Shown piece after piece: positions 8,107 through 18,704 of a stretch of DNA of 20,706 nt. Numbering within the stretch: the first letter of the stretch is position 1; each line of letters begins with the position of its first letter. A model generated the notes under the pieces. The model had not been told where the DNA came from. It saw only the letters and a program-made list of their open reading frames with translations, and did no database searches. Origin of the DNA: Hormoscilla sp. (GTDB lineage Bacteria; Cyanobacteriota; Cyanobacteriia; Cyanobacteriales; Desertifilaceae); assembly GCA_051439505.1 (NCBI GenBank), contig JBFRWI010000128.1:1-20706 (forward strand), read 5' to 3'. The position numbers and the translations under genes are program-made.

Positions 8107-9642
8107 ATGTTTACTAATTCAGAAAATACGATAACTGGTTTAATAGTGCTAGCGGCGGCGGCAGTGTTAGTGTGGGGATTATATCGGGCGAGAAATTACG
8201 GCAAATTAGGAATATTCGCCTGGTTGCAGTCGGTGGTGCTGATGGCTCCATGGTTGCTGTTTTTTGGTCTGTTCGGACTGGGAATTTACATTAATATGGC
8301 TACAGTTCTATTCCTAATTGTAGTCTCAGCAGGATTGTACATTTATTTAGGCAATAAACTGCGAGCGGCAGGTGCGGAAACGTTACTGCAACAGCAATTG
8401 TCAGAGAAGATGTCATCCATAGAGGAGACATCAAAAGAGTCAGAAAAAGAGTTGGAAAAAACAGAGGCAGAAGCAAAAGCATCTCAGATCCAAAAAATTA
8501 TCCAGATACCCATACCGGCGGCGGATATCAAAATAATTCAGGAAATATTTGGCATTGATACATTTTTTGCCACAGAAACTATTCCCTATCAGGAAGGGGC
8601 AATCTTTAAGGGAAATCTGCGGGGAGAACCAGCGGCAGTTCACAAACGCCTCTCGGCGAAGTTGTCGGCAAAATTGGGCGATCGCTACCGTTTGTTTTTA
8701 GTGGAAAACCCCGAAGACCGTCCAGTGGCGATCGTCTTACCGAGTCGCAATGACCCCCAAACAACCACAGTCGGTCAAAAAATTCTGGCAGTTATCCTAG
8801 CATTGGCGACTATTTTTACTAGCTTGGCAGCGGGCGGTTTGCTGCAAGGGTTCGATATCTTTAGCGATTTTGGTCGTAGTGCCGAGGCCCTCCCGATCGC
8901 GATCGGCATTTGGGCAGTTTTACTAGCTCACGAAATCGGTCACAGGTACATCGCCAAGCGTTACGAAGTGCGGATCGGTTGGCCATTCTTCCTACCGATC
9001 TGGCAAATTGGCTCTTTGGGCAGCTTAAATCGTTTTGAGTCCCTGTTGCCCAATCGTCAGGCGCTGTTCGATATCGCGATCGCGGGGCCAGCAGCAGGGG
9101 GCATTCTCTCCCTCGGAATGCTAATAACGGGTTTGCTGCTTTCCCATCCGGGCAGTTTTACGTTTGGGTTTGGGTTTGAGTTCGCTCAAGTACCCTCTCA
9201 GTTCTTTCAAGGGTCGATTTTAGTAGGAACATTGGCCCGAGTGGTACTGGGTTCGGCCCTGGGGCAACAGTTGGTTGACGTGCATCTTCTGGTGATAATT
9301 GGTTGGATAGGGTTGGTGATTACGGCCCTCAACCTGATGCCAGCAGGTCAACTGGATGGAGGTCGGATCGTCCAGGCCATCTACGGACGGAAAATTGCCG
9401 GTCGCACTACCATTGCTACCCTGATTGTATTGGCGATCGCCTCTTTAGCGAACTCCTTAGCGCTCTACTGGGCCGTCTTGATAGTATTTTTGCAACGAGA
9501 TTTAGAACGTCCCAGCTTGAATGAAATTACCGAACCAGATGACCAAAGGGCAGCGTTAGCTCTGTTGGCTCTATTCTTGATGTTAGCAACTCTCATTCCC
9601 TTGTCATCAACTCTAGCTGGACGCTTAGGTATTGGCGGTTAG
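8107..9642 (+). CDS. Site-2 protease, peptidase M50 family (EGY-like membrane zinc metalloprotease)
   Basis: 511 aa, multiple TM helices, HEIGH (HExxH), IAIAGPAAG, NLMPAGQLDGG (NxxPxxxLDG). Confidence 0.93.
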   Translation: MFTNSENTITGLIVLAAAAVLVWGLYRARNYGKLGIFAWLQSVVLMAPWLLFFGLFGLGIYINMATVLFLIVVSAGLYIYLGNKLRAAGAETLLQQQLSEKMSSIEETSKESEKELEKTEAEAKASQIQKIIQIPIPAADIKIIQEIFGIDTFFATETIPYQEGAIFKGNLRGEPAAVHKRLSAKLSAKLGDRYRLFLVENPEDRPVAIVLPSRNDPQTTTVGQKILAVILALATIFTSLAAGGLLQGFDIFSDFGRSAEALPIAIGIWAVLLAHEIGHRYIAKRYEVRIGWPFFLPIWQIGSLGSLNRFESLLPNRQALFDIAIAGPAAGGILSLGMLITGLLLSHPGSFTFGFGFEFAQVPSQFFQGSILVGTLARVVLGSALGQQLVDVHLLVIIGWIGLVITALNLMPAGQLDGGRIVQAIYGRKIAGRTTIATLIVLAIASLANSLALYWAVLIVFLQRDLERPSLNEITEPDDQRAALALLALFLMLATLIPLSSTLAGRLGIGG

Positions 9643-9645
9643 TCA

Positions 9646-9743
9646 GTGGTTAGTTGTCAGTGGTTAGTGGTTAGTGGTTAGTTGTCAGTGGTTAGTTGTC
9701 AGTGGTTAGTGGTCAGTGGTTAGTGGTTAGTTGTCAGTTGTCA
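9646..9743 (+). repeat. Heptamer tandem array (STRR-like), 14 units of GTGGTTA/GTTGTCA/GTGGTCA
   Basis: Read directly. With A=GTGGTTA, B=GTTGTCA and C=GTGGTCA the order is ABAAABABACAABB. Confidence 0.97.
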
Positions 9744-9766
9744 ATCGTAATTATGGCGTGTTCTCA

Positions 9767-10129
9767 ATGGATAAAACAAATTTTGAAAAATTGGATGTTT
9801 ACAAACTATCTGAAAAGTTAGCTGATGAAATTTGGAATATTGTCGGAGGATGGGATCAATTCACTAAAGATACAATTGGGAAGCAAATTGTTCGTTCAGC
9901 AGATAGTGTAGGTGCTAATATTGCGGAAGGTAGTGGTCGGTGGAACTATCAGGATAATCGGCGTTTTGTCAAGATTGCTATAGGTTCCTTATATGAGACA
10001 AAGCACTGGCTCAGACGGGCTTATACTAGACAACTGCTGACGACTACACAAGTAGACAAGCTCAAGCCAATAATGGATGAACTAGCACCTCGGCTCAATG
10101 TTTACCTAAAATCTATAGGTAAGGGTTAG
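9767..10129 (+). CDS. Four helix bundle protein (23S rRNA IVP / Avd-like family)
   Basis: 120 aa from ATG 9767 (the track's TTG 9731 start lies within the repeat). Motifs FEKLDVYKLS, QIVRSADSVGANIAEGSGR, RFVKIAIGSLYETKHWL. Confidence 0.93.
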   Translation: MDKTNFEKLDVYKLSEKLADEIWNIVGGWDQFTKDTIGKQIVRSADSVGANIAEGSGRWNYQDNRRFVKIAIGSLYETKHWLRRAYTRQLLTTTQVDKLKPIMDELAPRLNVYLKSIGKG

Positions 10130-10214
10130 TGGTTAGTGGTTAGTGGTTAGTGGTTAGTGGTTAGTGGTTAGTGGTTAGTGGTCAGTGGTTAGTGGTCAGT
10201 GGTTAGTGGTCAGT
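10129..10214 (+). repeat. Heptamer tandem array, 12 units (A7-C-A-C-A-C)
   Basis: GTGGTTA x7, then alternating GTGGTCA/GTGGTTA. Overlaps the TAG stop of the four-helix-bundle gene. Confidence 0.97.
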
Positions 10215-10222
10215 AAAAAAAT

Positions 10223-10266
10223 AACTGACAACTGACAACTGACAACTGACAACTGACAACTGACAA
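10223..10266 (-). repeat. Inverted heptamer array (AACTGAC)6, reverse complement of unit B (GTTGTCA)
   Basis: Six perfect AACTGAC units after an AAAAAAAT spacer, ending 13 nt before the ATPase ATG. Confidence 0.97.
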
Positions 10267-10279
10267 TGGAGCAAGAAAA

Positions 10280-11620
10280 ATGATTACTAAGATTCAAGTA
10301 AAAAACTTTAAAAGCTATCGATGGGGAGATTTGCCCTTTGCTTCCTTAACTGTTTTGATTGGAGCAAATGCGTCAGGTAAAAGTAACATTGTTGAAGCCC
10401 TCAGATTATTGGCAAGAATTGCTGAAGGCGAGCGATTGAGCTTTCTTGGCAACAGTCATCAACAGAGGGAAAGTCCGTTTAGAGGTAACGTTAATAATCT
10501 TGGATACAGAGGATCGGAATCATTTCAAATTTCCTGTGACGTGCAAACTCTTGAGTTTGCAGAATGGAATCACTTTGAGATTGATATAAAGCTTGGCAAT
10601 GATGGAGATATCCATGTTACCCAAGAAAAAATTACAGCCCTAACCTCAAGCGTTCCTCTATACCAAATTACTAGCGAACCTCAAGGGGCAGGTAGTGATG
10701 TTTTTGTAGAATATAATAATTTTGCCCGTGGTGGGAAAAAACCCAAAATTGTATGCAGTAGTCATATGGGAATATTTACACAGTTATTGAGTGAAATTCG
10801 TTTTCGTCCTGAAAATCAAGAGAGCCGAGAAAAAATTCCTATAATTACTAATAATTACGTTGGTTGGCTGAGTGGTATTGTTTTTCTGGAGCCAGAACCT
10901 AATGCAATGCGCTCCTATGGCCATAAAATAGATAAATTGCTCGATCGACAAGGAGCGAAGATATCCGGTGTCCTCTACAATCTCTGCCAAAACTCTAAGA
11001 TTAAGGCGGAGATATTAGAATTTGTGAGAAGTCTTCCCGAACAAGATCTTGAAGATATTGGTTTTATTGAAACTGCTCGTGGGGATGTGATGTTGGCGCT
11101 CACTGAAACATTTGGTGGGATCTCAACTACCTATGATGCAACAACCCTCTCAGATGGCACATTGCGAGTTCTGTCAATTGCAGCAGTTATGTTTTCGGCT
11201 CCAGAACAAAGCATTGTCGTCATTGAAGAAATTGATAATGGGGTACATCCCAGTAGAGCAGAAAGTTTACTGAGACGGATTGATAATCTTGCCCGATCGC
11301 GTGATTTGCGAGTTCTGATTAGCAGCCATAACCCGGCACTGCTTGATGCCCTACCTGATGAAGCCGTACCAGAAACAGTCTTTTGCTATCGCAGTCCTGA
11401 TGATGGTTCGAGTCAACTGGTACGATTGCGAGATCTTCCAGACTATCCCGAACTGATTGCCCAAGGTCCTGTTGGACAACTTATGACACGAGGTTTACTA
11501 GAACGGTTTGTGAAACACCATCCCGGAAGCGAAGAGAAGAAACAAAAAGCAATGGAATGGCTGGATAATATCCTGGATATTGCCAAGATGAATAGTTACA
11601 GAGAGAAAGTAATTAAATAA
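10280..11620 (+). CDS. ABC-type (AAA_21/AbiEii-like, RecF/SMC-like) ATPase
   Basis: 446 aa. N-terminal NFKS, Walker A GANASGKS, signature LSDGT, Walker B/D-loop IEEIDNGVHP, H-loop SSHNP. Confidence 0.9.
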   Translation: MITKIQVKNFKSYRWGDLPFASLTVLIGANASGKSNIVEALRLLARIAEGERLSFLGNSHQQRESPFRGNVNNLGYRGSESFQISCDVQTLEFAEWNHFEIDIKLGNDGDIHVTQEKITALTSSVPLYQITSEPQGAGSDVFVEYNNFARGGKKPKIVCSSHMGIFTQLLSEIRFRPENQESREKIPIITNNYVGWLSGIVFLEPEPNAMRSYGHKIDKLLDRQGAKISGVLYNLCQNSKIKAEILEFVRSLPEQDLEDIGFIETARGDVMLALTETFGGISTTYDATTLSDGTLRVLSIAAVMFSAPEQSIVVIEEIDNGVHPSRAESLLRRIDNLARSRDLRVLISSHNPALLDALPDEAVPETVFCYRSPDDGSSQLVRLRDLPDYPELIAQGPVGQLMTRGLLERFVKHHPGSEEKKQKAMEWLDNILDIAKMNSYREKVIK

Positions 11621-12779: not shown

Positions 12780-15182
12780 ATGAAATTAAAATATATCATC
12801 CCAGCCACGACTATACTACTCGCTGCCACGACGAACCTCTATGGCGCGAGGGCCCAAGGACCAACACCGTCTTCACCACGCCTGACCGCAGAGATCCCGA
12901 AAACGCCCTGGAATGCAGAACGGCCAGTGGGTGGGTTGTCGATCTCATCACCAGAGAAAAATCAACAGGTATTTCCCTTGAAACATACTGAGGTAAAGGC
13001 CAAGGTAGCTGGAAATGTCGGACAGGTGGAGGTGACGCAGCGGTTTGCCAATCCCTATACTACGGCCTTAGAGGCGGTTTATGTCTTCCCGTTGCCCGAT
13101 AATGCAGGGGTGCATGATATGGAGATTAAAATAGGCGATCGCCGAATTTCGGGGGACATAAAGAAACGGGACGAGGCCCGGGAAATATACGAACGCGCCC
13201 GGGAAGAAGGACGGACAGCGGGACTTTTAGAACAAGAACGGGATAATATTTTCACCCAATCTCTGGCGAACATTAAGCCCGGGGAGGAAATAGAAGTAAC
13301 AATTCGTTACACGGAAAATCTCGAATTTGCTGCGGGGGATTACGAGTTCGTGTTTCCAATGGTAGTCGGTCCCCGCTATATTCCCGGCGATCGAATTTCC
13401 GGCAGTGGAGGCGATAGCAGTCGAGTCCCGGATGGTTCTCGGATTAATCCGCCGGTGCTTCCGCCAGGCATGCGATCGGGCCATGATATAAATGTAACGG
13501 TAGAGATAGATGCCGGGGTGCCGATAACGGGTGTCCGTTCTCCCTCCCACAAGATCGTCACTCAGGGCCAGGGGGAAACTCTGCGGGTGCAACTGGCAAA
13601 AACAGACAGAATTCCCAATAAGGATTTGATCCTGCGCTATCGGGTAGCAGGGGAAAATACGCAAGGGACAGTTTTAACTCAAGCAGATCGACAAGGGGGT
13701 CACTTTGCAGCTTACCTGATTCCGGCGATCTCCTATGGCCGCAAGGAAATTGTCCCCAAAGATGTGGTGTTCCTGATCGATACATCGGGTTCCCAACGGG
13801 GGGATCCCTTAGCAAAATGCCAGGAACTGATGCGCCAGTTGATTAATGATTTACATGAAAATGATACTTTCACCATTATCGATTTTGCCAATGCGACTAC
13901 GGCATTATCTACTGTCCCCTTGGCGAATACACGAGCAAATCGCGCCCAGGCCCTGGAATATATTAATCAACTGAAGGCCAAGGGGGGCACGGAGTTAATG
14001 AATGGCATTAATACAGTGCTGAATTTACCAGCGGCGCCAGGGGGAAGGTTGCGGAGTATCGTGTTGCTGACGGATGGTTATATTGGCAATGAAAATGAGA
14101 TAATTGCCCAGGTGCAGCAGGGACTGCAACCGGGAAATCGCCTTTATAGCTTTGGGGTGGGGAGTTCGGTGAATCGCTTTTTATTAAATCGCCTGGCGGA
14201 AGTGGGCAGGGGAACATCCCAAGTGATTCGTCAAGACGAACCGACTCGGGAAGTAGCAGAAGAGTTTGCTCGCAAAATTAATAATCCCGTGTTGACGAAT
14301 ATTCAAATTAGTTGGGAAGGAAGCGGGGTGCAACCGGAAATATATCCAACTGCGGCACCGGATTTATTTGCGGAACAGCCTTTGGTAATATTGGGCCGAA
14401 AAGGCGATCGGGCGAGTGGCAATCTGCGAATTACGGGAGTGACAGCAGGGGGCAGAAGATACAATCAGGTTTTGGCTGTGAATTTTAATGGGGACAACCA
14501 GGCGATCGCTCAGCTGTGGGGTCGGGCGAGAATTAAGGAATTGATGAATCAGATGTTTGGTGGCGAGACCAAAACAGGCGTGGAGGCGGTGACGAAAACG
14601 GCTTTAGCTTATCAGCTATTGTCACCTTACACGGCTTTTGTAGCAGTCAGCGAGGAAGTGCGAGTTAATCCCGATGGCACCAGACAGCGGGTACAAGTGC
14701 CCGTAGAGTTACCTGAAGGTGTCAGTTATGAAGGAATTTATGGCACGGAGGCAAGAGGAAATCAGGTTGGCGGACAGTTTTCTCCTCCTAGCGCGCCCAG
14801 TAGTGCCATAACAGTGGGCGGCGGCAGTAGAGGTGCTGCACCAGGGCCTTTAGCGCAATCTTCTATATTTGAGTCTGAAGATGAGTTGGCGCCAGAAAAT
14901 CATCGTATAGAAGTGATTAGTGCGTTGGGATTGGATGCTGGGGCACTTGCCTCTCTCACCCGGGAATTAGCATGGGTGGATTTGCCATCTGGGGTGAGTG
15001 GGGAAATTGTCTTTGAGTTTCGCGTGAGTAACGGGCAAGTGGGGCGAATAATCTTAGATGATACGGTCTCGACGCTGCAAGCAAAAGCGGTGCTGGATGA
15101 GATTCGGCAAACGTTAGCTATCTGGAATGCGCCTCGGTCTGTCAGTGGAAATGTGCGTCTGCAGTTGCGAATTAAACCTTGA
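12780..15182 (+). CDS. Secreted VIT + von Willebrand factor A domain protein with C-terminal extension
   Basis: 800 aa. Signal-peptide-like N-terminus, VIT domain (VEVTQRFANPY..ALEAVYVFPLP, AGLLEQERDNIFTQSLANI), vWA MIDAS DTSGS, LLTDGYIGNE, FGVGSSVNRFLL. Confidence 0.9.
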   Translation: MKLKYIIPATTILLAATTNLYGARAQGPTPSSPRLTAEIPKTPWNAERPVGGLSISSPEKNQQVFPLKHTEVKAKVAGNVGQVEVTQRFANPYTTALEAVYVFPLPDNAGVHDMEIKIGDRRISGDIKKRDEAREIYERAREEGRTAGLLEQERDNIFTQSLANIKPGEEIEVTIRYTENLEFAAGDYEFVFPMVVGPRYIPGDRISGSGGDSSRVPDGSRINPPVLPPGMRSGHDINVTVEIDAGVPITGVRSPSHKIVTQGQGETLRVQLAKTDRIPNKDLILRYRVAGENTQGTVLTQADRQGGHFAAYLIPAISYGRKEIVPKDVVFLIDTSGSQRGDPLAKCQELMRQLINDLHENDTFTIIDFANATTALSTVPLANTRANRAQALEYINQLKAKGGTELMNGINTVLNLPAAPGGRLRSIVLLTDGYIGNENEIIAQVQQGLQPGNRLYSFGVGSSVNRFLLNRLAEVGRGTSQVIRQDEPTREVAEEFARKINNPVLTNIQISWEGSGVQPEIYPTAAPDLFAEQPLVILGRKGDRASGNLRITGVTAGGRRYNQVLAVNFNGDNQAIAQLWGRARIKELMNQMFGGETKTGVEAVTKTALAYQLLSPYTAFVAVSEEVRVNPDGTRQRVQVPVELPEGVSYEGIYGTEARGNQVGGQFSPPSAPSSAITVGGGSRGAAPGPLAQSSIFESEDELAPENHRIEVISALGLDAGALASLTRELAWVDLPSGVSGEIVFEFRVSNGQVGRIILDDTVSTLQAKAVLDEIRQTLAIWNAPRSVSGNVRLQLRIKP

Positions 15183-15418: not shown

Positions 15419-15521
15419 TAAACAATTCAAAATTCAGAATTCAAAATTCAAAATTGGGAAAATATTTGAGGGCAAGGCTTTCAGCATTTGGAGCCATGCA
15501 ATTTAAATGCGCGACAGCTTA
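15419..15521. mobile_element. 103-bp MITE-like dispersed repeat, copy 2
   Basis: Same length and orientation as 107-209, 85% identical, TA at both ends. Heptamer units here are AATTCAA-type. Confidence 0.7.
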
Positions 15522-16715: not shown

Positions 16716-16776
16716 ATTGTAGCCGGACCCCTCGTTCCCACGGCGAAGCCTGGGAACGGGTTCGGGCGGCTACAAT
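16716..16776 (-). terminator. Long hairpin immediately 3' of the lipoxygenase stop (REP-like; possible terminator or stabiliser)
   Basis: Outer perfect 10-bp IR ATTGTAGCCG / CGGCTACAAT enclosing CTCGTTCCCA-CGGCGAAGCC-TGGGAACGGG. No clear poly-U tail. Confidence 0.45.
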
Positions 16777-18704
16777 TAGATATTAATGCTGTTAGGGATT
16801 TGGGAAGGAAGCAGATAGGGATAGTCGAGACCAATTTCTTGGCTGCGTTGCTGATTGCGAGTTTGAATTTGGCTTTCAATTTCCTGGAGGTCGGCCTGAA
16901 ACTGTGCTAGAATCTGCCTGTCGCCCGCATCTACAAACTTAATGAGATCGGAACTCCCCAAACGACCCCAGCGAGTTGCACTGAGAAAAAAAGTTAATCT
17001 CATCTGCTCTAAATCATAATCTGGCGGGGGCAGCATCTCGTCCAGAGATCCCGCGACATCAGGTCTGGCGTAGGTAGCTGGCATATTTGGGACATAACCC
17101 ATGTAGTCAAACTGACTGAAATTGAGAGCAGCGTGCTGGGGACCACAGGTAAAGATAATCTGAGTGGCAATGTCAATTAATTCTTGCAACCTGGTGATTT
17201 TCTCTGGGAAATCTGGCACCCGGGAATAATGTGGTAGTGATTCGATCGACAGTCCCACTTCGGCAGCTATTTCTGAAGGGACCCAAGAGGGTGCTTGGGC
17301 AAATTCTGTCAGGGGTCGAGAATCTAGGGGTGCGCCTAATTCTGCTGCCCAAGCTTGTAGGTAAGGGTCTTGCCGCACTGCCTGGTCGTCCCGGTAGTAG
17401 CGTTGCAGGTAAGCCTCCGCATAGCGGGCGATCGCCTCCCACAGCAATTGGGCATCATCCCGATAGGGAAATTGGGGTAGAAATTCTGGTTCTATGCCCC
17501 GTCGTTTAATATTGTTAGGCAAAGAATAGTCTTCAAAGGGTCGTTTGCGGTAGGCCCGGTTGACAATATCCAGAGAAGTTTCTCTCGTCTGAGCCATTAG
17601 CTTGCCAATAGCGGCGTCTTCCCCCAAGAGAACTGGCTCCACGCGGCCATTAATTGCTAGCAGAAACTGGAAGTGAGGATGCAGTAACCGATAGAGGGGA
17701 TGATTGTCTGGCAACTGTCGGGGAGTGGCGATCGCAAATGCTTCCATAATCAGATGGGTGTAGCAGAGATGATCGATCAGTTCGTGGTGGATGATATCTG
17801 CTACCTGGACATATAGTTTAGCTCGCATCCAGTCATCTGCCGCACCCGACGGTGTAAACAGTTTCCCGGACGATTCTAACTGGATCGAAACCGGTTCCAG
17901 TCCGCTTTCTGAGCGGTAGAACAAAGCTTTGGGACTGCCTACGTATCGACCCGCCTGCAACTCCGTCGTTGTTATATTTTTCAATAGCGGGTATTCGACA
18001 ATAAAGAGGCGATCGCCTGCCGCTGCCTCCAATAGATCGATCCGCGCTCCTGTTGCCAGGGGATAGAGACCGTCAGACCAGCTCTGGAGCATAGTTTTAT
18101 CTGATTTTAACAGCTGGCGCAGCATCATCGGATTTGCTCCTGCGAGGCGCTGATTGGCAAATGCCCGATCGGTCAAACTCCCCTCCCTTTCATAAATCAA
18201 ACTTACTCGCGGTCGCTGTTTTCCTTTATCTTCAATTTCCTGGAAAAACCGCTGACGTTGGCGATCGGACTGTTCCGTTTGAGAGCACCCCTCTGCTGCC
18301 GCCATGGATGCCGCCTCACTACCTGCCTCCATTGCCGCTACCATTATTTGCCCTATTTTCCGACGCTCTACAGCATAGCTAGTATTGAACTGTTCTCCCG
18401 GAGGCAGGTCAAAGTTCAGCCACCCGGAATTGATGAATTCCCAATCTGCCAGCAATGTCGTTATTTTTACCCACCCCTGCTTGATACTTTTACGGATTTC
18501 CTCTAGTCCTGACAGCATCTGAATTAAAGGTTCTGAAACTTGACCTTTGTCTACCAAGTTATCCCGCATTTTGCTCGCAATATAGCGCAGGATACCATCT
18601 TCTCCCACCTGGGAAAATATCCGCGCCGGTCCCCCGGTTTTTATCCTGCTTGGATCGTAACGATAAATACCTTGTTGCTCTGTTGGCGGGTTATGGAAAG
18701 TCAT
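16776..18704 (-). CDS. lox: Lipoxygenase (non-heme iron)
   Basis: 642 aa. FANQRLAGANP, WMRAKLYVQVAD, HHELIDHLCYTHLIME, YRLLHPHF, FPYRDDA..LWEAI, QHAALNFSQ and C-terminal IPNSINI provide the full set of Fe ligands. Confidence 0.96.
   Translation of the reverse strand: MTFHNPPTEQQGIYRYDPSRIKTGGPARIFSQVGEDGILRYIASKMRDNLVDKGQVSEPLIQMLSGLEEIRKSIKQGWVKITTLLADWEFINSGWLNFDLPPGEQFNTSYAVERRKIGQIMVAAMEAGSEAASMAAAEGCSQTEQSDRQRQRFFQEIEDKGKQRPRVSLIYEREGSLTDRAFANQRLAGANPMMLRQLLKSDKTMLQSWSDGLYPLATGARIDLLEAAAGDRLFIVEYPLLKNITTTELQAGRYVGSPKALFYRSESGLEPVSIQLESSGKLFTPSGAADDWMRAKLYVQVADIIHHELIDHLCYTHLIMEAFAIATPRQLPDNHPLYRLLHPHFQFLLAINGRVEPVLLGEDAAIGKLMAQTRETSLDIVNRAYRKRPFEDYSLPNNIKRRGIEPEFLPQFPYRDDAQLLWEAIARYAEAYLQRYYRDDQAVRQDPYLQAWAAELGAPLDSRPLTEFAQAPSWVPSEIAAEVGLSIESLPHYSRVPDFPEKITRLQELIDIATQIIFTCGPQHAALNFSQFDYMGYVPNMPATYARPDVAGSLDEMLPPPDYDLEQMRLTFFLSATRWGRLGSSDLIKFVDAGDRQILAQFQADLQEIESQIQTRNQQRSQEIGLDYPYLLPSQIPNSINI

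Follow-up and report, generated by a model that had tools for sequence, protein, structure and literature searches.

A four-helix-bundle gene between inverted heptamer arrays as a candidate transposase-less mobile cassette

In the cyanobacterium Hormoscilla sp., a short gene for a four-helix-bundle protein lies between long arrays of heptamer repeats, which raises the question of whether gene and repeats belong together and, if so, what the repeats are for. The window analyzed here is the whole stretch of 20,706 nt of contig JBFRWI010000128.1 (assembly GCA_051439505.1). An earlier note had described the gene as bracketed by 14 upstream units, 12 downstream units without unit B, a spacer, and about six inverted anti-B units, and had suggested that it may be a transposase-free mobile or excisable unit or an intervening sequence of an mRNA. 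The description of arrays and gene was confirmed, and the locus comprises the following parts:

8107..9642, plus strand: M50 peptidase gene (PF02163), the upstream host gene, whose stop codon adjoins the left arm
9643..9743, plus strand: left arm of 14 G/T-rich heptamers, with units from 9646, 3 nt past the M50 stop
9767..10129, plus strand: ORF of the four-helix-bundle protein, 120 aa (PF05635/TIGR02436)
10124..10214, plus strand: additional array of 12 direct units that extends over the stop codon of the ORF
10215..10222, no strand: A-rich 8-nt spacer, AAAAAAAT
10223..10266, minus strand: right arm of about six inverted units, AACTGAC on the plus strand
10280..11620, plus strand: AAA ATPase gene, a neighbor outside the cassette (PADLOC candidate PDC-M07A, E 4e-183)

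The left arm consists of units A (GTGGTTA), B (GTTGTCA), and C (GTGGTCA), which can be parsed between 9646 and 9743 as ABAAABABACAABB (14 units), and its start is common to all four congeners (4/4). The 12 direct units downstream of the gene, parsed at 10129-10212 as AAAAAAACACAC, do not include unit B. The right arm contains five full anti-B units at 10226-10260 (Tandem Repeats Finder counts 6.3 AACTGAC copies over 10223-10266), and its end coincides with the ATG where the leader of the following gene begins. A longer reading of the ORF from a TTG at 9731 was rejected, because this codon lies inside the array and the ATG at 9767 agrees with the homologs. No intrinsic terminator was found around the cassette and no terminator-like site in the 8-nt spacer; Rfam yielded no match at gathering level between 9500 and 10400, with mostly miRNA hairpins among the sub-threshold matches, and no target-site duplication is apparent by eye in the window. 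Of six promoter-like hits, the three that overlap the inverted array were not trusted.

The M50 peptidase gene is present in 41/41 genomes searched. The AAA ATPase gene was rejected as cargo of the cassette, because it keeps its place in a cassette-less allele and is found at another locus in four congeners. There, a tRNA-like gene precedes a close copy and a small partner gene follows it; the latter, with 155 aa in one congener, is absent at the window locus. In the window, the leader of the AAA ATPase gene (ATGGAGC...) begins exactly where the inverted arm ends, as if relocated to that point.

The ORF at 9767-10129 scores well above the cut-offs of PF05635 (98 bits, cut-off 33.8) and TIGR02436 (92 bits, cut-off 24); PF05635 is the only domain matched in the protein, and the predicted fold is all-helical. 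The structure model (pLDDT 94) aligns with Xcc0516 (PDB 2GSC; TM 0.89, rmsd 1.0) and BT_0352 (PDB 2RLD; TM 0.76-0.78), which share family and fold with the window protein and whose entries comprise five chains each; Avd (PDB 4DWL; TM 0.77) is more distant than 2GSC. By analogy with 2GSC (PMC4990558), the protein may be a homopentamer. A homo-oligomer prediction with four copies scored 0.25 against a mark of 0.42 and was not used either way. The protein is basic (pI 9.5) and contains the family-invariant residues Q40, R43, S47, N51, E54, and E77, of which all but E77 are conserved polar residues spaced along helix 2. It is not known to have a catalytic role. The dN/dS of the ORF is 0.07-0.11 against three homologs (a fourth pair is saturated); across 14 pairs, values are 0.07-0.15 in 11 and 0.24 and 0.46 in two, with one saturated. 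Judged from these ratios, the protein is under purifying selection.

Arrays around the gene are by no means restricted to the window. Among the best 80 of 123 close homologs, which represent many phyla, 77 were kept (three were dropped for short flanks), and 64/77 carry period-7 arrays on both sides, compared with 48/4742 control ORFs of the window genome, a set that includes the genome's own family genes. The enrichment of flanking arrays over the genomic background of heptamer repeats, which the earlier note had proposed to look for, is therefore large. Pairing of the flanks exceeds the 99th percentile of the controls in inverted orientation in 66/77 homologs and in direct orientation in 8/77. 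The extra direct array, which comprises about two units in congener G002 and is short also in sequencing run X17, is an uncommon, lineage-specific, recent expansion.

In a wider set, to which loci were added from the best-scoring matches of searches at the level of phylum and family (199 distinct genes, 195 with flanks), inverted arms occur at 162/195 and direct arms at 20/195 of the genes; all further arm statistics refer to these 162 loci, which were thus selected for having arms. The repeat period is 7 in 126 cassettes, 8 in 29, 9 in six, and 6 in one. The upstream arm is G-rich in 149/162 cassettes, so that the G-rich arm follows the upstream stop and the C-rich arm precedes the downstream start. 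In 99/138 loci, no more than 15 nt separate an upstream stop codon from the arm start, and in 65/120, no more than 15 nt separate the arm end from a downstream ATG, counts for which no null was computed. All four family genes (4/4) of the window genome are flanked by arrays on both sides, and the unit differs from gene to gene; the paralogs themselves are all different and include no recent identical copies, which counts against the reading preferred below.

Some loci are of unusual structure. At L048 (G001:C2:505294-505681), the four-helix-bundle gene is interrupted by an array of its own flanking heptamer, and at nine loci (L273, L288, L300-L303, L310, L312, and L315), arms of one repeat family surround arrays of another. 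Such nested arms suggest successive insertions into the center of older elements. Small-genome relatives in the phylum (family f43, L146-L198) carry this cassette too, with arms that are short and in many cases consist of 8-mers (AAG....T) or 9-mers. A viral scan returned 16 loci, with heptamer arms in five of the six inspected. Genome G211 has 18 PF05635 matches, many of which cover only positions 1-87 with near-equal scores, possibly reflecting a recent expansion or a family of the DGR type.

The sequence of the repeat unit follows the protein phylogeny. Across the 162 loci, arm similarity drops with distance in the protein tree (Mantel r -0.41; 0/500 permutations as extreme); the trees are FastTree reconstructions, from which we derive neither a donor nor a sequence of events. 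The similarity of the window arms is 0.29 (median) to those of 26 non-cyanobacterial members of the same clade from five other phyla and 0.018 to those of 83 genes from other clades in the same phylum. Both arms of the window clade share one logo, approximately A-K-T-D-G-T-Y, with G at position 5 in 98-99% of cases in both arms; other clades have other logos, some with periods of 8-9. An ABC-ATPase/mlaD junction in 30 genomes of one genus is occupied in 10 genomes by a subtype with ATTAGTC-type arms and in another 10 by a second gene subtype with AGTTGGC/AGTTGTC arms; of the remaining genomes, eight are gene-less with remnant arms and two are unresolved. The link between a particular protein and its repeat that the earlier note had suspected is thus borne out, because the unit tracks the tree and differs between paralogs and between subtypes at one site. 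Two points speak against a tight link: the paralog at C48, a close neighbor in the tree, has hardly any 5-mers in common with the window arms (0.012), and arms merely travelling with the gene would also follow the gene tree. At the level of residues, T or S at residue 4 goes with G at unit position 2 in 79/82 loci, a combination that was chosen post hoc and represents one independent pair on supported branches (not significant); a residue-base code is a lead only.

The cassettes are also embedded in a genome that is rich in heptamer repeats, a kind of repeat named STRR in cyanobacteria. As many as 386 of the 617 heptamer arrays use units of the four cassettes. The G-rich strand is the sense strand in 171/224 arrays after stops vs 34/116 before starts, and among 50 close array pairs, the order is G-rich-then-C-rich in 27 and the reverse in only one. 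Facing pairs of the window repeat family number 16 in the genome, and almost none of them encloses the gene. In a comparison of 72 genomes of the same order, in which kin are not independent and at most 22 candidates per genome were scored, all of those with the window clade (19/19) have at least 179 matches to the repeat pattern of the clade, and 10/53 of those without it reach 150; within families, the co-occurrence held in one (p 8e-5) but not in three small ones. In the other 15 close facing pairs, agreement between arrays at the variable position is 0.089 vs 0.385 when shuffled (p 0.0014), which suggests selection against perfect DNA palindromes. These pairs (G000 C2, C47, C59, C84, C86, C148, C151, C167, C206, C208, and C231) are systematically mismatched at one position, with zero agreement in 13/15.

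The genomic neighborhood of the gene differs strongly between homologs. Upstream neighbors fall into 42 clusters among 78 homologs, contrary to the conserved synteny expected of a vertically inherited gene, and both neighbors are co-directional in 52/80 loci. They are mostly housekeeping or transport operon genes, with pairs that, going by their Pfam families, are presumably manC-manB, purB and a gene of the AIR-synthase family, paired secretion ATPases, and HlyD-AcrB. Domains of reverse transcriptases or transposases are absent from the 72 of 153 homolog-neighbor fragments that were scanned, and neither type of gene lies beside the four-helix-bundle gene in the window; together with the protein having no known catalytic role, the result for the scanned fragments speaks against the reading preferred below. 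In an rnc-gfo spacer, the gene is present in 2/30 genomes, and most of the others have gene-less, sometimes nested arms.

The same variability exists at the window site. Congener G002 has retained the cassette with a frameshifted ORF, and G001, G003, and G004 have kept the left arm and lost the rest, a pattern that looks like deletion rather than precise excision and counts against the preferred reading. In G005 and G007, the M50 gene adjoins a gene of 266 aa across a plain 30-nt spacer. A single DNA contig of run X5 (depth 4.7), from a close relative, joins 9636 to 10260 via 41 other letters; with flanks of 232 and 341 nt, it retains both neighbors and has 9637-10259 replaced. Hence, the empty alleles after the M50 gene for which the earlier note had proposed to search do exist, and its idea of a transposase-free mobile unit agrees with a cassette that is gained and lost, is bounded by inverted arms, and has no transposase. 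Gain and loss are indistinguishable in the X5 allele and the congeners, and the direction of change is not given by these data. Depending on the genome, a stop-to-start junction of operon genes either has the cassette or lacks it. Joints in runs X1-X4 that seemingly skip the ORF (e.g., 9733 to 10221) were rejected as evidence of excision, because their sides comprise at most 36 nt within repeats and may be accounted for by gene-less facing pairs, of which the genome has 15 at other positions.

The reading that we prefer, although with the scales about evenly balanced, is that of a widespread, small, transposase-less cassette that relocates, with a protein that likely binds its cognate repeats and thereby aids the spread of both cassettes and gene-less arm pairs. 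We infer the binding, which is likely, and the movement of the cassette from comparisons of sequences. The protein would form a pentamer like Xcc0516 and Avd, with each subunit accommodating one repeat and reading a few of its bases. The ring would bring together or anneal the two arms, or one arm and a resident array, and recombination or repair enzymes of the host would then insert or swap the unit, with slippage changing the length of the arrays. Such an action could be likened to that of RAYT on REPIN. The arms appear to behave more as oriented binding sites on DNA, be it double-stranded or one of the two single strands, than as an RNA helix under selection.

An RNA helix is the basis of one alternative. 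The region 9640-10270 folds with -182.5 kcal/mol (z -3.6), and in the partition function, the inverted array has 40 expected pairs with the upstream array and 0.1 with the adjacent one; the corresponding duplexes have energies of -59.7 and -50.5 kcal/mol, respectively. The long-range pairing that the earlier note had anticipated is therefore favored, although a local hairpin of -48.9 kcal/mol competes with it. If the cassette were an intervening sequence of an mRNA, the arms would be selected to pair in the transcript and to loop out the gene, and RNase III would cut the stem as in the 23S elements, separating or destabilizing the insert and bringing the upstream stop near the downstream start. 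Such a role, which we consider unlikely, would be in line with the predicted stem, the proximity of stop and start codons to the arms (99/138 and 65/120 loci, no null), and the Coxiella element, which is reported to have heptamers at its 5' stem and to be cut by RNase III (PMC4990558). However, the arms of the 162 cassettes show no excess of G-U pairs (378 G-U vs 398 A-C; more in 61 loci, fewer in 71), the sense duplex is more stable than the antisense duplex in only 83/162, and the median arm identity is 0.83. Because G-U pairs are about as frequent as A-C and sense and antisense duplexes are similarly stable, selection for an RNA helix is not apparent. The stem had originally been deduced from the match between B and anti-B; adjacent facing arrays avoid complementarity, which is enough to account for the lack of B next to the inverted array without any long-range partner, and the exact match is not kept in congener G002. 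One of the 20 sequencing runs was RNA, with reads on the flanks of relatives and not over the gene. A long RNA stem may form at the window locus, as predicted by the fold, and might be incidental or a means by which operons tolerate the insert. Overall, the transposase-free unit, the layout resembling an intervening sequence, and the tie between gene and repeat held up, but the RNA stem deduced from B and anti-B did not.

Two further explanations were considered. The protein might be a host regulator that binds one strand of the repeat in mRNA (or DNA) near stops and starts throughout the genome and autoregulates through its own arms, with relocation being a passive result of recombination between arrays. 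The polarity of the arrays relative to transcription (171/224 vs 34/116) agrees with such a regulator, as do the polarity reported elsewhere (PMC4692102), the proposal that TAACTGA arrays before start codons are regulator sites (PMC4679880), and the effect of heptamer arrays on recF/recO expression through a partner (10.1101/2022.06.06.494920), and also the purifying selection on the protein. By contrast, congeners that still have the arrays have often lost the gene or carry a broken copy, 10/53 genomes without the window clade have many arrays, and a regulator acting on RNA would need only one arm, yet both arms keep the same logo, which makes this explanation rather improbable. Still less probable is passive hitchhiking, in which slippage and palindrome dynamics generate the arrays, recombination between arrays carries the gene along, and the job of the protein is unrelated to the repeats. 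The abundance of arrays (617) and of facing pairs of the window family (16), nearly all without gene, would be expected in this case, and the avoidance of perfect palindromes points to mutational forces at the DNA level. However, only about 1% of the other ORFs are bracketed by arrays, the unit is shared with the protein clade across cyanobacteria and five other phyla, and it differs between paralogs of one genome and between subtypes at one site.

The preferred reading of a relocating cassette gains context from systems that have already been described. In the 23S rRNA intervening sequences of Coxiella and Leptospira (S23p), a protein of the same family is likewise looped between inverted terminal repeats without a transposase, and the Coxiella element has GACAGAT heptamer repeats at its 5' stem (PMC4990558). 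The kinship with these ORF-bearing elements that the earlier note had suggested is supported by the layout, because the complementary termini of the window cassette also enclose the ORF in a predicted long stem. Unlike them, it lies between protein-coding genes and not inside an rRNA gene, has longer and more degenerate arms with no sign of selection for RNA pairing, and encodes an ORF under purifying selection. In CPR bacteria, members of PF05635 are reported to occur as well, at insertion sites scattered over the rRNA (10.1101/2024.02.27.582315).

With RAYT-REPIN, the cassettes share small single-copy genes with cognate repeats, the tie between protein type and repeat type, and gene-less inverted doublets scattered in intergenic DNA (PMC3337134). 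RAYTs are HUH/tyrosine transposases, whereas the window protein forms a helical bundle and is not known to catalyze a reaction; REPIN repeats are palindromes of about 20 nt, whereas those of the window are tandem 7-9-mers, and here the gene itself appears at many unrelated sites. The cassette would work like RAYT-REPIN but is not a member, because the HUH transposase is absent. Avd of the diversity-generating retroelements (PDB 4DWL, 8UB7) shares the fold (TM 0.77) and is described as inserting flipped-out RNA bases between its protomers (10.1101/2023.10.23.563531), but its identity with the window protein is 11-13%, and the window gene has no adjacent reverse transcriptase gene. Insertion sequences and MITEs differ by a transposase in cis, which is lacking in the window and the scanned neighbor fragments.

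The arrays themselves belong to a kind of intergenic heptamer repeat that has been described in cyanobacteria, Xanthomonas, and Beggiatoaceae (PMC4692102; PMC4679880). For Xanthomonas and Nostoc, convergent inverted pairs are reported together with a strand polarity around stops and starts that equals the one found here (PMC4692102), and TAACTGA arrays before start codons are reported in PMC4679880; the articles propose roles as G-quadruplexes or regulator sites, and neither mentions a four-helix-bundle gene. A literature search that included few subscription journals and no supplements found no paper linking the PF05635 family to heptamer arms outside rRNA.

A more far-reaching interpretation can be offered only tentatively. 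Four-helix-bundle proteins might act in trans on a class of transposase-free mobile DNA that has not been described so far, in which each clade reads its own repeat of 7-9 bases by a simple residue-base code and seeds both gene-bearing cassettes and the gene-less heptamer arrays that occur by the hundreds in cyanobacteria and other bacteria; the ORF-bearing rRNA intervening sequences would be copies that landed in rRNA genes, and Avd a domesticated relative. With a protein clade tied to a repeat unit, a single binding assay can address where bacterial heptamer repeats come from, how rRNA intervening sequences arose, and what PF05635 proteins do, and the cassette may help to explain the heptamer repeats of cyanobacteria. 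A specificity swap is readily available in the two natural subtypes, whose units differ although they occupy the same site. If a residue-base code were true, the protein would be a very small programmable nucleic-acid-binding ring.

The window contains two more heptamer arrays, at 112-142 (AATTCCA) and 15424-15455 (AATTCAA), the latter resembling the arms of the paralog at C71. A perfect 31-bp repeat (1.9 copies, 366-425) lies upstream of an ORF without Pfam match (456-1022), and other genes of the window encode a VIT-vWA protein (12780-15182, plus strand) and a lipoxygenase (16776-18704, minus strand; PF00305).
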